Shown here: positions 3,747-64,000 of the stretch, piece after piece
Position numbering within the stretch: the stretch's first letter is position 1
Layout of the letters: each line of letters opens with the position of its first letter
Source: an uncultured Planctomycetia bacterium
Lineage (GTDB): Bacteria; Omnitrophota; Gorgyraeia; Duberdicusellales; 4484-171
Length of the DNA stretch: 64,000 nucleotides
NCBI GenBank assembly: GCA_964629785.1
Contig: CAZVRU010000002.1
Location: 34,861-98,860 of the forward strand
Direction of reading: 5' to 3'
Translations under genes and position numbers: made by a program
Notes under the pieces: generated by a model
Databases searched by the model: none
Told to the model about the DNA's origin: nothing
The model's input: only the letters and a program-made list of their open reading frames with translations

Positions 3747-3941
3747 CCAGAATAAGCGATGGACTGCCAGAACCGCCTCGCCTTTTTGGCCAAGCGGGAT
3801 CCCTGCTTCCAGCGGCGAAAAGCAAAGGGGAAGGGATGTCTTCGGCAAAAAAGCAAATATACCGGTGCGGTTTTAAAAAGTATATGATATAATATTTATC
3901 CTTTGTCAGGGGGTGGCATTAGGAGACAAGTATTTATCTCT

Positions 3942-5045: not shown

Positions 5046-5127
5046 GCCGTCCGGATCTTGAACCGTTTTCCGGCTATTCGTCTGCTGATGAGGGCATTGA
5101 CTTTCTGTCAGAGTCTGGTATAGTTAT

Positions 5128-5928: not shown

Positions 5929-6631
5929 AGGTTTGTCTAAAAGATACGGCGGCCGTACAGTAGTCAAGGGTGTTTCCTTGAACGTACAGCGCGGCGAGAT
6001 CGTAGGTTTGCTCGGGCCCAACGGCGCCGGTAAGACCACTACTTTTTACATGATCGTAGGGGTGGTCTTTCCGGACAGCGGCAATATTCTTTATGATAAT
6101 CAGGATATCACCTATCTGTCGATACATAAAAGAGCCCGTTTCGGCATCGGGTATCTTTCCCAGGACCCTTCGGTATTCAGAAAACTTACTGTAGAAGATA
6201 ATATAATGGCAATACTGGAAACTTTGCCTCTTTCCCGCAGCGAGCGGCGCCAGAGGCTGAACGCGCTTCTCAAGGAACTGGATATAAGTCATTTGCGCGA
6301 CAGTTTTGCTTACACTTTAAGCGGGGGAGAAATGAGACGTTTGGAGATAACCCGCAGCCTGGTTACTAATCCGTCCTTTCTTTTGCTTGACGAACCGTTT
6401 TCCGGTATTGACCCGATAGTGGTAAATGAAGCCAAGGAACTGATCGTCGAGTTGAAGAACAAAGGTATCGGTATTCTTCTTACCGATCATAATGTGCGGG
6501 AAACCCTGTCGATAACCGACCGGGCTTATATTATTTATGAAGGGAATATCCTTATTTCCGGGACCTCCCGGGATCTGATCAACGATCCCAAAGCAAGAGA
6601 GATATATCTGGGGAAAAATTTTCAGATGTAG
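5909..6631 (+). CDS. lptB: LPS export ABC transporter ATP-binding protein LptB
   Basis: It has the Walker A motif 'GLLGPNGAGKTTTF', the ABC signature 'LSGGEMRRLEI' and Walker B 'LLLDEP'. The start was chosen at 'MKILEIKGLSKRY', an internal ATG of the track ORF. Confidence 0.88.
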   Translation: MKILEIKGLSKRYGGRTVVKGVSLNVQRGEIVGLLGPNGAGKTTTFYMIVGVVFPDSGNILYDNQDITYLSIHKRARFGIGYLSQDPSVFRKLTVEDNIMAILETLPLSRSERRQRLNALLKELDISHLRDSFAYTLSGGEMRRLEITRSLVTNPSFLLLDEPFSGIDPIVVNEAKELIVELKNKGIGILLTDHNVRETLSITDRAYIIYEGNILISGTSRDLINDPKAREIYLGKNFQM

Positions 6632-31049: not shown

Positions 31050-31262
31050 ATGGGAAAGTTTTTTATTTTTCTGGGGGTTTTATTGGTGCTGGCCGGTGTT
31101 TTACTCATTGCCGGGCCTGATATTAAATTTCCTTTTCCGGGCAGGCTGCCCGGCGATATTATTATAAAAAAAGATAATTTCACTTTTTATTTTCCGCTGA
31201 CGACGTCATTGCTGATAAGTATCCTGATCTCGGCAGTATTTTATCTGATAAACAGGAAGTAA
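31050..31262 (+). CDS. DUF2905-family small membrane protein
   Basis: It has two TM helices and a conserved 'GRLPGDI' motif. The start was taken at 'MGKFFIF'; the track ORF begins earlier at TTG 31005. Confidence 0.6.
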   Translation: MGKFFIFLGVLLVLAGVLLIAGPDIKFPFPGRLPGDIIIKKDNFTFYFPLTTSLLISILISAVFYLINRK

Positions 31263-31281
31263 TGTCTGAATATTCGAAAAA

Positions 31282-31407
31282 GTAGCGAGTAGCAGGTAGA
31301 GAGTAGAGAGAAGGGGAAGGGATATTTACATCTTGATGTTCGATGATTTTCAGGAAAATTGCAATCTGTATTTTTCTCGCTACTTGCTACTCTCTACTCG
31401 CTACTGG
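31282..31407. repeat. Inverted arrays of degenerate AGTAG / CTACT pentamer words flanking a ~65 bp spacer
   Basis: The left arm is agtagcgagtagcaggtagagagtagagag. The right arm is ctcgctacttgctactctctactcgctact. Both end in the 12-nt perfect complement agtagcgagtag / ctactcgctact. Confidence 0.6.
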
Positions 31408-31417
31408 GATAAGCATG

Positions 31418-32533: not shown

Positions 32534-32642
32534 GCGGATCTTCTGACAGATAAATGCTTGGAAACAACCGGATAAAAAGAGTATAATTTTATGAGCTATG
32601 AGTATCCTTTATGGTAATTGTTGAACTTAACCTGTTTCTATT

Positions 32643-40019: not shown

Positions 40020-40210
40020 GTTCAGACAGAAAAACTTTCTTTAATATTTGACCGGACTTCCGGCTTTTGGTAAATGGTTTTGTTTGACGGTTAAGCTGCC
40101 GGTTTTGGCCCGAGCCAGCGGTTACGTCTTCATTCAGGATGTTTTTACGTTGCCGTTAAACGTTAAACGATACGGTTTGGCAACCTTAAATCCTATACTC
40201 TGAATAAAAG

Positions 40211-49601: not shown

Positions 49602-49977
49602 ACTGCGCCGCCGGATAGGCAAAGTCCTCTGCGCCCTGGGTCAAGAAGAAAAACAAATCGAGATCGTTCTCTGCGATAATCGCCTTATCCGGGAATTGAA
49701 CCGCGATTTTCTGGGCAAAGACAATCCCACGGATGTCATCGCCTTCCCCCTGGACGGAGAAGACTGTCAGGGGATATGGGGGATAGTTGTGATATCTGTG
49801 GAAGAAGCGGATATTTACAGCCGCGCCCATGGCCTTGCCTGGCAGGAAGAAATGTTGCGCTATATCGTTCACGGCATCCTTCATCTGCACGGCTATAAAG
49901 ATAAGGCCGCTGATGACCGGCAGCGGATGCGGCGCAAAGAAAACCAGCTGTTAAAAAAAGTAGAGAGTAGAGATTAG
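49549..49977 (+). CDS. ybeY: Endoribonuclease YbeY (16S rRNA 3' maturation)
   Basis: It has the zinc motif 'HGILHLHGYKD'. It overlaps the upstream gene by about 50 nt, so the true start may be downstream. Confidence 0.85.
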   Translation: MKVRLKNLQKAKKIDLIELRRRIGKVLCALGQEEKQIEIVLCDNRLIRELNRDFLGKDNPTDVIAFPLDGEDCQGIWGIVVISVEEADIYSRAHGLAWQEEMLRYIVHGILHLHGYKDKAADDRQRMRRKENQLLKKVESRD

Positions 49978-50178
49978 GGTGATACGAATGCAAATTGCAA
50001 CCTGCCTCGACGGCAAGGCGGGATTTAACATTTAGCATTGCAAAATTGGACTGTGGACTGTGGTCCGCTCGCCCTGAGCGAAGCCGAAGGGTGGTCTGGC
50101 GTCTGTTTTACTTGTCGCCTTCAGACTTGTCGACTTGCAACTTGTCACGTGTAACTTGCGACTTTTTCCTATAGGCCA

Positions 50179-50913: not shown

Positions 50914-51353
50914 TCATGATCTATGAAGACAGATTGACCAGCGCTATCGAAAAAAAAGCCAAAAAACTGCAGGGTTCGACTTTCTCTCCTGATCAGGTCG
51001 ACGCGTCCATACTGCAGACCATTTCTTACGAGTATCCCGGCCGCCGAACAACCGTAGAACTGACCTCGGATGAATTCACCTGCCTTTGCCCCTTTTCCGG
51101 TCTGCCGGATTTTGCCAGACTGGTGATTTCCTATGTGCCGGCCAGGAAACTTATCGAAATGAAAGCTTTAAAATATTATCTTTGTGCTTTTCGCAATGTA
51201 AAGATATACAACGAACACGTTGTGAACAAGATCCGGGACGATCTTAAGAAAGCGCTTTTACCGCGTGAACTTTCCGTGACCGGTTATTTTACGTCGCGGG
51301 GCGGTATCACCAACAAGGTCGTGGCCTCCTATAAAAAGAATACCAGGGTATAG
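50910..51353 (+). CDS. queF: NADPH-dependent 7-cyano-7-deazaguanine reductase (type I QueF)
   Basis: It has the catalytic Cys region 'EFTCLCPFSGLPDFA' and a QueF motif. Confidence 0.88.
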   Translation: MIMIYEDRLTSAIEKKAKKLQGSTFSPDQVDASILQTISYEYPGRRTTVELTSDEFTCLCPFSGLPDFARLVISYVPARKLIEMKALKYYLCAFRNVKIYNEHVVNKIRDDLKKALLPRELSVTGYFTSRGGITNKVVASYKKNTRV

Positions 51354-51513
51354 CGTCTGGCGTTTAGCGGATAGGGTTGCGACTTCGTCGCGAGGTAATG
51401 TGAAATAGATAATTTCTAATTGACCTGATTTGGAAAATGTCTGAATATAAATTTATGTGTAGCGCGGAGCGTTCCCTGAACGCTAACCGCTAAACCCTAA
51501 CCGCTGTTTTACT

Positions 51514-60644: not shown

Positions 60645-60717
60645 GCGCCCATAGCTCAGCAGGACAGAGCGCTGGCCTCCTAAGCCGGAAATGGCCGTTC
60701 GAGTCGGCCTGGGCGCA
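60645..60717 (+). tRNA. tRNA-Arg (anticodon CCU), CCA not encoded
   Basis: A manual cloverleaf gives a 7-bp acceptor stem GCGCCCA/UGGGCGC, a D-stem GCUC/GAGC, and an anticodon stem CUGGC/GCCGG with one G-U pair. The anticodon loop is cUCCUaa (U33, CCU, A37), and the T-arm is GGCCG-UUCGAGU-CGGCC. The discriminator is A, followed by UAU. Confidence 0.8.
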
Positions 60718-60719
60718 TA

Positions 60720-60840
60720 TATCAGCTCTTAGCTCATGGCTCATAGCTCATAATCAAAAGTTATGCGTTATACGTTATAAGTTATGAGTTAAAATCCGGG
60801 AAATCCGCACTGATAACTGATAACTGATAACTTGTAACTC
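60720..60840. repeat. Three consecutive degenerate word arrays (AGCTCAT x4; GTTAT x5; ATAACTG x3), the last two forming an inverted pair
   Basis: The three arrays read agctcttagctcatggctcatagctcat, aagttatgcgttatacgttataagttatgagtt and tgataactgataactgataacttgtaact. A 20 nt spacer separates the last two. They lie immediately 3' of tRNA-Arg. Confidence 0.6.
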
Positions 60841-60985
60841 CGCGATAGCGGTGGGGGACTGTCCCGGACAGGCCGGGAAAAACCCTGATTTGTCGCAAAA
60901 TACGGCCTTTTTAAGGGGAGTCACTACATTTTGGGCTTATATTTTTCGGAATGCCCATATATGGGCAGTCTTTGTCAAAAAAGTG

Positions 60986-61015
60986 TTGACAATAAAGGAG
61001 TTATTTGATTAAATT
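60986..61015 (+). promoter_or_regulatory. Sigma-70-type promoter for the major OMP gene (TTGACA, 17-18 nt spacer, TTAAAT/TAAATT)
   Basis: A perfect -35 hexamer TTGACA is followed by an A/T-rich -10. A ~230 nt leader precedes the ATG at 61247. Coordinates are approximate. Confidence 0.55.
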
Positions 61016-61246
61016 GTAGTAAGCTCTTTGAAAAAAGTTTGTTTTCCAATGACCAAAATTGCCAGTTATACCATTCACAGACAGTCTCAATCTTGGAAAG
61101 AAAGGGGGTGAGGATAACAGACATTTCCATAAATTGGTTCAGAGATTGTCCCCAAAAGTGAATGATATAACCATAGATGGTTGATATGTGCAAGGAATGC
61201 TAACCTTGTTCCTGATAAATAGAACTCTCTGAAAGGAGGCTTTACA

Positions 61247-62499: not shown

Positions 62500-62535
62500 A
62501 AAACCCCCGGGGATTTTCCCCGGGGGTTTTTTTTT
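62500..62535 (+). terminator. Rho-independent terminator (13-bp GC-rich stem AAAACCCCCGGGG / CCCCGGGGGTTTT plus U9 tract)
   Basis: A perfect inverted repeat with a 5-nt loop is followed by nine T. It lies 15 nt after the OMP stop codon. Confidence 0.9.
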
Positions 62536-62604: not shown

Positions 62605-62970
62605 ATGGCAGCGACAATCGCAGAGGAGGAGAATATGTCTGAAGACAGGAAGCTGAATGAGCAGGAAATAAGGGAGGGGGCAGGCCTGGCCGCGCTTTCT
62701 TATGTGTTTTTTTTATGGGTCCTGGCCTTTTTATTCAGGAAAGACAATAAATTTTCTCATTTCCATGCTAAACAGGGGCTGGTACTTTTTATTTTCGAGG
62801 TGATAGTGTTTTTCTTTTTGTCATTTATTCCTTTTTTCGGCGCCCTGGTCCGTGTTCTCGGGCTGATCGTATTTCCGCTTTGCGCGTTTTACGGGATCTA
62901 TGCCGCGTTGACCGGCAGGATGGCTGAAATACCGGTAATAGCTGATCTGGCAAAGAAATTGGTGGTGTAA
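62605..62970 (+). CDS. DUF4870-family small membrane protein
   Basis: It has two to three TM helices with a conserved 'LSY...HAKQG' pattern. The true start may be the internal 'MSEDRK'. Confidence 0.6.
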   Translation: MAATIAEEENMSEDRKLNEQEIREGAGLAALSYVFFLWVLAFLFRKDNKFSHFHAKQGLVLFIFEVIVFFFLSFIPFFGALVRVLGLIVFPLCAFYGIYAALTGRMAEIPVIADLAKKLVV

Positions 62971-63924: not shown

Positions 63925-64000
63925 TTGGCTAACCGCCAAAGTTATAAGTTACACGTTACAAGTTATGAGTTGATGAATGCAAAATTCGTCCCGGCAACTC

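Follow-up and report, generated by a model that had tools for sequence, protein, structure and literature searches.

The intergenic spacers of an uncultured Omnitrophota bacterium (the 197-kb contig CAZVRU010000002.1 of assembly GCA_964629785.1, positions 34,861 to 98,860 of the forward strand; this 64-kb stretch is called the window) carry tandem arrays of degenerate 7-nt words. We conclude, with a probability of about 85%, that these spacers constitute one family of heptanucleotide-repeat elements, confined to a single clade, in which arms are reused and copied from spacer to spacer. An arm consists of three to six tandem, imperfect 7-nt words and stands alone or, more often, as one of an inverted pair at the edges of the spacer; the loop between paired arms is unique sequence of 20-100 nt. 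Five spacers are referred to here as elements A (between DUF2905 and tgt), B (ybeY and recO), C (queF and polX), D (directly 3' of a tRNA-Arg gene) and E (at the end of the window). A preliminary description of the window had placed these, together with a sixth spacer at about position 3826, in one mosaic family of operon-boundary elements.

Heptad arrays in the spacers

Arrays were called with Tandem Repeats Finder (TRF), which returned 11 arrays of period 7 in the window. They lie at 31281-31310, 31376-31405, 49959-49977, 50047-50063, 50110-50164, 51481-51505, 60724-60752, 60758-60791, 60809-60832 and 63939-63965, all within the spacers named in the preliminary description, and at 40154-40169. 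A self-match scan that required at least four units per array found six arrays of period 7 in the window against 0.1 in shuffled sequence, so that the spacers are indeed, as had been claimed, too patterned for chance. Arrays of period 8-12 were absent from the window and the shuffles alike, and the excess of period 4-6 over the shuffles was far smaller than that of period 7. When arrays of at least three units were pooled from the window and three syntenic relatives, 24 period-7 arrays were found in 4.6 kb of spacer (5.2 per kb) and three in 121.5 kb of coding sequence (0.025 per kb), a density about 200 times higher in intergenic than in coding DNA, and the same pool has zero intergenic arrays of period 6, 8, 9 or 10. 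Since the enrichment is found at period 7 only, the repeat word is a heptad rather than the word of 5-7 nt described before. A division of the heptad into five conserved and two variable positions was considered and rejected, as the mismatches are scattered across the unit and not significantly concentrated in two adjacent columns (combined p 0.9). Within the spacers, arrays are found at relative positions 0.06-0.27 and 0.75-0.9, i.e. at both edges.

The words shared within the clade are AGTAG, TAGCG/CGCTAA, AGTTAT/TAACTGA/ACTTG, AGCTC, TAAGY, GTCAC and GCTGATAG. In the source genome AGTAG arrays are found at three loci (31281, 49959 and, beyond the window, ~67143), AGTTAT arrays at two (60758 and 63939), and AGCTCAT also at two (direct at 60724, as its reverse complement at 32589). 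The GTTAT block reported at 60758 and 63939 does match, over 34 nt at 88% identity, between element D and positions 63938-63971 of element E. Exact sharing of words of at least 12 nt, compared over 18 spacers (2.4 kb in total) with dinucleotide shuffles, is above chance as had been proposed (6 against 0.43), but five of the six words are array words: AGTAGAG is common to 31296 and 49960 and recurs on the opposite strand at 31387, AGTTAT/GTAACTT is found at 60774-60827 and 63941-63960, and AGCTCAT at 60740 has its complement at 32589.

The preliminary description had further read the shared strings as unique modules reshuffled between loci. All seven strings that it quoted occur exactly twice and where it had placed them, including GTAGAGAGTAGAGA at 31296 and 49960, AATGTCTGAATAT at 31261 and 51436, AGGGGAAGGGAT at 3826 and 31312, GAATGCAAA at 49986 and 63975, and GTCTGGCGT at 50094 and 51355. 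Once the arrays are masked, however, the spacers have 23 words of at least 9 nt in common where 21.8 are expected, and one of at least 12 nt where 0.49 are expected, which does not bear out reshuffled modules. Because masked sharing is at the level of chance, the 9-mers gaatgcaaa and gtctggcgt, the 12-mer aggggaagggat and aatgtctgaatat are indistinguishable from coincidence in the sample of 18 spacers, and degenerate copies of aggggaagggat and aatgtctgaatat are not enriched. Pieces are thus shared between loci, but the shared piece is the heptad arm and not a unique module.

Other readings of the non-array sequence were tried and rejected. AAGGGGAAGGGAT does not behave as a module, as its near matches are not enriched and the 13-mer shared with 3825 is at chance once arrays are masked. 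Neither AATGTCTGAATAT as a promoter -10 box nor TTGACC-N17-GAATAT in element C as a promoter is supported by the consensus scan, which gave no promoter in A-C; degenerate copies of AATGTCTGAATAT are also not enriched. A sigma-54 reading of the TTGCA motifs fails by inspection, the spacing being wrong. As a side observation, the motif WTGCAAAWT, defined post hoc and no more than a lead, has three occurrences in the window (49988, 50038 and 63977), all in elements B and E, where 4.5 would be expected anywhere in the window; it is also found in array-bearing spacers of two relatives (L019:20658 and L016:888 on the minus strand).

Folding distinguishes the paired from the unpaired elements. Compared with dinucleotide shuffles, the inverted arms of A, C, D and E fold significantly (z -4.5, -3.8, -4.1 and -5.2, respectively, E being completed from L029, a second assembly of the source genome that adds 5 kb past the window and brings the total examined to 69 kb). 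In the minimum-free-energy fold of A, 31281-31310 pairs with 31376-31405. The stems consist of 5-12-bp helices with a mismatch about every 7 nt, and single arms fold alone at only 0 to -6 kcal/mol. Elements of the relatives L019, L023, L001 and L016 mostly score between z -3.3 and -6.3. Of five control spacers free of longer arrays, four lie between +0.7 and -2.4, and the fifth, 40020-40210, with a two-unit array, has z -2.3. Element B, with three unrelated arrays (AGTAGAG, GACTGTG and ACTTGNN) and no inverted partner, has z +0.67, and the 3826 spacer, with no array, has no excess structure (z +0.09). The architecture ascribed to six loci therefore holds for A, C, D and E, which also fold; B has arrays without a partner, and the 3826 spacer has no array.

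The elements matched no catalogued RNA family and no predicted terminator. A search of Rfam over the window gave only the tRNA above the gathering threshold, and permissive searches added only sub-threshold matches to miRNA precursors, which are generic hairpins. Terminator prediction found no intrinsic terminator at the elements. Elsewhere in the window, 62500-62530 is a perfect 14-bp GC-rich bidirectional intrinsic terminator (AAAACCCCCGGGGATTTTCCCCGGGGGTTTTTTTTT), so canonical terminators are used alongside the heptad hairpins.

Elements in related genomes

The best relatives of the window's Tgt are all from Candidatus Omnitrophota metagenome-assembled genomes, at 57-64% identity. We fetched syntenic loci via RecO homologues, with RecO identities of 69% (L025), 65% (L019), 58% (L016), 55% (L022), 52% (L023 and L001) and 43% (L014); the closest relative was at 64% in Tgt by genome scan, 58% in RecO by metagenome scan and 69% in RecO by protein search. 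The conserved gene order in the relatives is guaA-dnaE-HU-hisS-aspS-LysM-phoH-pgpH-ybeY-recO-queF-polX-apbE-panB-proS-ppdK-sigma70-hpt.

The same architecture, built from different heptad words, is found in at least six related genomes. Between guaA and dnaE, L019 has TAAGCGA, TAAGCAG, TAAGTCG, TAAGTCC and TAAGCCG and, further on, GCTTAAG, ACTTACA, GCTTACG, ACTTAGG and ACT, followed by 8 nt and the ATG. At the same junction L023 has TAGCGGT, CAGCGGA, TAGGGAT and TAGCGAT and then CTAGACG, CTATACG, CTCACCG, CTAAACG and CTAGTAA directly before the ATG. This genome also has CAATTNN arrays and their complement between recO and queF. L001 carries GTCACA and TGTGAC arrays, and ACCAGAG four times immediately before an ATG. 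Upstream of recO, L025 has ATAGGCA six times and, after a gap, CCCTAAA, CGCTAAC, CGCTAAA and CCCTAAA, and inverted arrays stand at the same place in L016 and L014. In more distant Omnitrophota loci (L002-L012, ~140 kb) there are essentially no arrays; the feature is specific to one clade.

As the preliminary description had suggested checking, orthologous junctions are variably empty or occupied. The gap between DUF2905 and tgt is 3 nt in L001 and 152 nt in the window; between ybeY and recO, L023 has 3 nt, L022 33 nt, L019 97 nt, the window ~210 nt and L025 at least 228 nt; queF and polX overlap in L022 and are 160 nt apart in the window.

That arms or arm modules are copied between spacers is shown by sequence comparison. 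The last 50 nt of element C, before polX, match the L025 spacer before recO at 90% identity (E 9e-13), although these junctions are not orthologous, and the match includes both the order of the variant heptads and a small internal hairpin. Such identity over 50 nt, at 69% RecO identity, is beyond convergence and therefore argues for copying. The TAGCG/CGCTA words of element C also make up the guaA-dnaE element of L023, and AGCTGATAGCTG is common to L022 (LysM-phoH) and L014 (ybeY-recO), again at different junctions. In L022, a perfect 37-nt inverted repeat (GTTTACATTAAAGCTCTAGCTCAATTGTCAACTTAAG) at 5091-5127 and 6526-6562, 1.4 kb apart, lies in the spacers flanking aspS; this could be either a very recent copy of an arm or a long-range pairing that loops out the 1.4-kb gene. 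Matches between loci are restricted to arms, and the loops are unrelated.

Across elements A, C and E the sequence is the same in independent Logan assemblies of SRR2187629, and the arrays are therefore not assembly artefacts. Phase-variable contingency loci are ruled out: no indels occur in the arrays among strains that are 99.9-100% identical, and therefore these are not slipping loci.

Structure of the elements and their flanking genes

All features below are on the + strand. The 5' arm of element A (31281-31310; TRF period 7, 4.3 copies) reads AGTAGCG, AGTAGCA, GGTAGAG and AGTAGAG. Its loop (31311-31375) holds AAGGGGAAGGGAT at 31311-31323 and an ATG at 31343 that is in frame with tgt. The 3' arm (31376-31405, from TRF and the fold) reads CTCGCTA, CTTGCTA, CTCTCTA, CTCGCTA and CT. 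These are the AGTAG words in reverse complement, and the arm stops 9 nt short of the tgt ATG (31415), which has a weak Shine-Dalgarno site (-4.0 kcal/mol). The Logan gene call takes the ATG in the loop (31343-31414) and yields a Tgt of 396 aa, in which the first 24 residues (MIFRKIAICIFLATCYSLLATGIS) come from the loop and the 3' arm; relatives start with MF(K/E)V, which corresponds to 31415.

Element B has, by TRF, a solo array of 2.7 copies of AGTAGAG (49959-49977), 2.4 copies of GACTGTG (50047-50063) and about six units of ACTTGNN (50110-50166), the last ending 21 nt before the recO ATG (50188). The ACTTGNN region contains TGTAACTTGCGACTT, which is common with the orthologous L016 spacer. 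The AGTAGAG array is open in the frame of ybeY, which stops only at the TAG at 49975-49977, so that the last YbeY residues (KKVESRD) are repeat-encoded (49955-49977). The elements thus mislead gene callers, with a 24-residue false N-terminus of Tgt and an extended tail of YbeY.

In element C, TAGCGTC, TGGCGTT, TAGCGGA and TAGGGTT form the 5' arm (51351-51378), the first TAG being the queF stop codon, and this 5' end is kept in L025 (tagCGTCTAGCGTTT). The 3' module (51436-51505) consists of AATGTCTGAATAT, a mini-hairpin (AGCGTTC-CCT-GAACGCT) and the array GAACGCT, AACCGCT, AAACCCT and AACCGCT; it ends 8 nt before the polX ATG (51514), which has no Shine-Dalgarno site (+1.5 kcal/mol). The paired arrays are 51351-51378 and 51478-51505.

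Element D begins directly 3' of tRNA-Arg(CCT) (60645-60717) with a solo array of four AGCTCAT units (60724-60752, TRF). Its 5' arm (60758-60791, from TRF and the fold) reads GTTATGC, GTTATAC, GTTATAA, GTTATGA and GTTA, and pairs with the 3' arm (60809-60840) of three TGATAAC and one TTGTAAC. Positions 60809-60832 are (TGATAAC)3.4, that is, (TAACTGA)n with a 100% TRF match, and the first three units are (TAACTGA)3. After D there are about 400 nt of non-coding sequence (60841-61246) with GC-rich hairpins and a promoter-like TTGACA-N18-TAAATT at 60986, preceding a 412-aa gene without a Pfam match. Further on, 62605-62970 encodes a 121-aa protein with only a faint precomputed match to MamF/MmsF (a magnetosome protein) and nothing at E<=1e-5 in the Pfam scan.

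The 5' arm of element E (63938-63971, TRF) reads AGTTATA, AGTTACA, CGTTACA, AGTTATG and AGTT. Its loop and 3' arm lie beyond the window's end, and the latter (CAACTCAT...AACTCATAACTTATAACTT) was taken from L029, where it is equivalent to window positions ~63998-64038. Two minor arrays have two units each: ATGAGCT and ATGAGTA, the reverse-complement form (TTATGAGCTATGAG) of the AGCTCAT word, in the tgt-trmD spacer (32589-32602), and CGTTAAA in the guaA-dnaE spacer (40154-40169, TRF), a junction that holds complete inverted heptad hairpins in L019 and L023. A convergent spacer beyond the window (L029:4586-4811, window-equivalent ~67121-67346) has AGTAGCA, AGTAGCA and AGTAGCG, repeated ACGTCTAAG / ACGTCTTAC units, GACTATC and GACCATC; arrays are therefore also found at 3'-3' junctions without a nearby start codon.

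The 'operon-boundary' label suits only some of the elements. D and E have a tRNA or a small gene on their 5' side and promoter-like sequences on their 3' side, but A, B and C are inside strings of genes that in relatives are tightly coupled, with gaps of 0-4 nt or overlaps. The + strand carries all ~58 credible genes of the window, and the cumulative GC skew climbs monotonically; therefore the directions of transcription and replication are inseparable within it. Among the relatives, L022:16271-20464 encodes a pyruvate phosphate dikinase of 1397 aa with faint intein and LAGLIDADG matches, compared with 941 aa for the protein of the window and that of L019; the extra length points to an inserted intein.

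Where arrays do adjoin genes, they tend to occupy the place of translation signals. Between a 3' array and the start codon that follows there are 0-24 nt, and the 5' array often begins at or inside the upstream stop codon, as the queF TAG opens element C. Predicted pairing to the anti-Shine-Dalgarno sequence averages -0.7 kcal/mol for 10 array-preceded genes against -5.0 kcal/mol for 102 other genes of the same loci (Mann-Whitney p 0.0006). In A, C and the elements of L019 and L023, the base of the hairpin leaves a total of ~8-27 nt between the upstream stop and the downstream start. The possibility that 5' arms supply stop codons in three frames was rejected: stop-type trinucleotides are enriched ~1.6-2 fold equally on both strands and in both arms, an excess that is symmetric and so without polarity, and it was not used as evidence.

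All flanking genes run in one direction and lie in gene strings that relatives pack closely, so that the elements are most probably carried on polycistronic mRNAs. We suggest the following model. Copying of arms between spacers would leave any given junction empty, filled, or filled with another word in related genomes. In the mRNA, A, C, D and E would form interrupted hairpins of 25-35 bp, the base of which could bring the upstream stop and a downstream start lacking a Shine-Dalgarno site within ~8-27 nt of each other. The hairpin could then serve as intercistronic punctuation through which downstream translation is coupled or permitted without a Shine-Dalgarno site, and may also be a site of double-strand-specific processing or of protection of 3' ends. 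Of the readings considered this is the likeliest, yet we give the action of the elements as RNA hairpins for translational coupling, or as determinants of processing or stability, somewhat less than even odds. A looser reading, in which only coupling-preserving insertions are tolerated, fits as well.

Several observations weigh against parts of this picture. With regard to copying, words at orthologous junctions usually differ, one exception being the 15-mer TGTAACTTGCGACTT, which the window and L016 (58% RecO identity) have in common upstream of recO; because words turn over, orthologous arms cannot be aligned. Copy number and length of the arrays do not vary among the near-identical strains. 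An enzyme that copies arms was not found, and the Pfam scan revealed no transposase among the window genes. A, C, D and E have no target-site duplication, and their flanks contain no direct repeat (TCGAAAA/GGGATAA for A, AGGGTA/GTTTTA for C, ATCAAA/CCGCGA for D and CGCCAA/CTTTAT for E). With regard to hairpins, element B, the AGCTCAT array and the ~67143 array have no inverted partner. The sense strand folds better than the antisense in seven cases, about equally in two and worse in three, and the sense fold of E is worse by 10 kcal/mol; as sense folds are not consistently stabler, the structure could matter in DNA or be irrelevant. A sense-strand bias from G·U pairs, worth 11 kcal/mol in A and 8 kcal/mol in C, does not establish an RNA function, as it is reversed in E, L019 and L014. 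With regard to translation, D, E and the convergent spacer do not adjoin start codons, the TAACTGA array of D being 405 nt from the next one; arrays thus often, but not always, lie close to a start codon. The Shine-Dalgarno deficit could also have been inherited from genes that once overlapped and were coupled.

Origins and comparison with known repeats

In the main rival explanation the elements would be neutral or selfish repeat DNA: slippage-expanded heptamers whose arms are copied or gene-converted and tolerated outside genes, the hairpins and the missing Shine-Dalgarno sites having no function. We give this rival a substantial though minority probability, and it is kept alive because folding has no consistent advantage on the sense strand. 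According to Mrazek et al. (2007), as cited in PMC4679880, the heptanucleotide is the commonest unit of long simple-sequence repeats in prokaryotes, and in that account such repeats of 7-nt units are perfect or near-perfect and length-variable, with slippage as their proposed origin. Junctions that are empty in some relatives without evident cost, differing words at orthologous junctions, solo arms and mismatches spread over the whole heptad, as decaying repeats would predict, all agree with neutrality. The window arrays differ from the repeats of Mrazek et al. in being degenerate, partnered by an inverted array and stable in near-identical strains; imperfect arrays without length polymorphism speak against active slippage. 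Reverse-complement partners around unique loops would also need more than slippage. The 50-nt module kept at 90% identity at different junctions would need recent copying or constraint, and the 15-mer upstream of recO has been kept between the window and L016.

The nearest precedents, not mentioned in the preliminary description, are heptamer repeats of other bacteria. TAACTGA repeats occur in marine Beggiatoaceae, some Cyanobacteria and Bacteroidetes, and in Beggiatoaceae they are found just upstream of start codons without ribosome-binding sites (MacGregor 2015, PMC4679880). Like them, the Omnitrophota arrays are intergenic tandem 7-nt repeats of 2-6 units with a patchy phylogeny, many of them, in words other than TAACTGA, close before start codons without a canonical ribosome-binding site, and the window itself has (TAACTGA)3.4 at 60809-60832 and the degenerate reverse complement AGTTATN at 60758 and 63938, the other arrays consisting of other words. 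In Beggiatoaceae, however, one perfect word is favoured, in forward orientation and predicted to be unstructured, with one inverted case in 170 sets (PMC4679880), whereas the family in the window has many words, imperfect units and usually inverted, hairpin-making pairs (A, C, D, E). Omnitrophota were not reported in that study (PMC4679880). In Nostoc 7120 heptamer repeats overlap the recO start codon (bioRxiv 10.1101/2022.06.06.494920), GACYAAT occurring there eight times. In Nostoc/Anabaena, TTGTCAG and TAGGGGT arrays are found in the spacers of the hyp operon. The likeness lies in having several heptamer words per genome, each reused at many intergenic loci and often near start codons or promoters, and recO is preceded by an array in both organisms, by coincidence or not. 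The Nostoc/Anabaena arrays are mostly near-perfect direct repeats, and a systematic reverse-complement partner is not described in the cited papers. Heptamer repeats of cyanobacteria go by the name STRR.

A second rival invokes a protein that binds single-stranded RNA or DNA, one word per 7 nt, and regulates translation or termination of the adjacent genes; it could be of the S1, cold-shock or ring type, e.g. HutP. HutP binds UAG-N4 repeats and is mentioned as a lead only. The strict period of 7, the 3' arrays that cover the expected place of the ribosome-binding site, and UAG or UAA at 7-nt spacing in many 5' words would suit such a protein, and similar proposals were made for TAACTGA repeats (PMC4679880) and Nostoc recO (bioRxiv 10.1101/2022.06.06.494920). 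We consider it improbable here. At least eight unrelated words would call for several proteins or a very loose specificity, stop-like trinucleotides are equal on both strands and arms and so give no polarity, pairing of the arms would hide single-stranded sites, and no candidate gene lies within the window. A related suggestion of the preliminary description, an iteron array or the binding code of a single double-strand DNA regulator, fits poorly: there are at least eight words in contiguous 7-bp units, no canonical promoter in A-C, and no origin in the window, as judged from the monotonic GC skew.

The preliminary description had also likened the spacers to REP/BIME or MITE families, and a third rival takes them for a known mobile family, either REP/BIME/REPIN elements, mobilised by a RAYT transposase, or MITEs that descend from an insertion sequence. 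REP elements are similar in several ways (PMC3733652): both are short, intergenic, located between co-directional or convergent genes, often inverted dimers that give larger hairpins, probably transcribed, and reused in mosaic fashion. Arms are common to several loci and genomes, and some words contain GTAG or CGTC. A REP unit of 20-40 nt, however, is itself an imperfect palindrome, has a terminal unpaired GTAG/CGTC tag and is associated with RAYT, whereas the arms here are tandem heptads that do not pair with themselves. GTAG recurs once per heptad inside the arms of A and B rather than as a terminal tag, and most words lack it; the Pfam scan of the window found no RAYT among its genes.

Correia/NEMIS, ERIC and RUP are hairpin-forming MITEs that are co-transcribed with operons. 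The elements are similar to MITEs in their size of 100-250 nt, their terminal inverted arms (A, C, D, E), their location between operon genes and their presence/absence polymorphism among relatives, but in 69 kb of the genome there is no target-site duplication, no full-length consensus (only arms match, and no two full-length copies were found) and no parent insertion sequence, and the arms have an internal period of 7. Because most of the defining features looked for, in both families, are absent here, REP/BIME and MITE are architectural analogies only, and descent from either is very improbable. Finally, although the sharing of 9-mers and of 12-13-mers outside the arrays is no greater than chance, chance similarity, low complexity or an assembly artefact is refuted as the source of the arrays by their excess over shuffles, their intergenic concentration, the identity of independent assemblies and samples, and the same architecture in the related genomes.

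The family stands apart from known heptamers in that its units are degenerate, an inverted partner and hairpin are systematic, arms are copied between junctions, and the phylum is a different one; a full-text search of the literature found no paper that contains both 'Omnitrophota' and 'heptamer'. It is also conceivable, though unlikely, that the arms are the mobile unit of an undescribed copy-and-paste process, replication- or RNA-mediated, that acts at operon stop-start junctions without target-site duplication or a recognisable transposase, and that the mismatched hairpins are a clade-wide substitute for the Shine-Dalgarno site that bridges stop to start. If this were true, a single mechanism would link heptamer repeats, so far unexplained, in cyanobacteria, Beggiatoaceae, Bacteroidetes and Omnitrophota.

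For decades, heptanucleotide repeats at start codons have been known from heterocystous cyanobacteria and giant sulfur bacteria as a curiosity without explanation. That a fourth phylum, uncultured and unrelated to the others, has them too speaks for a general mechanism and against a quirk of one lineage. In the form found in Omnitrophota the repeats make hairpins, are copied between junctions and coincide with the loss of Shine-Dalgarno sites. Since one and the same junction is empty, filled or differently worded across relatives, these genomes provide natural comparisons by which the mechanism can be tested.

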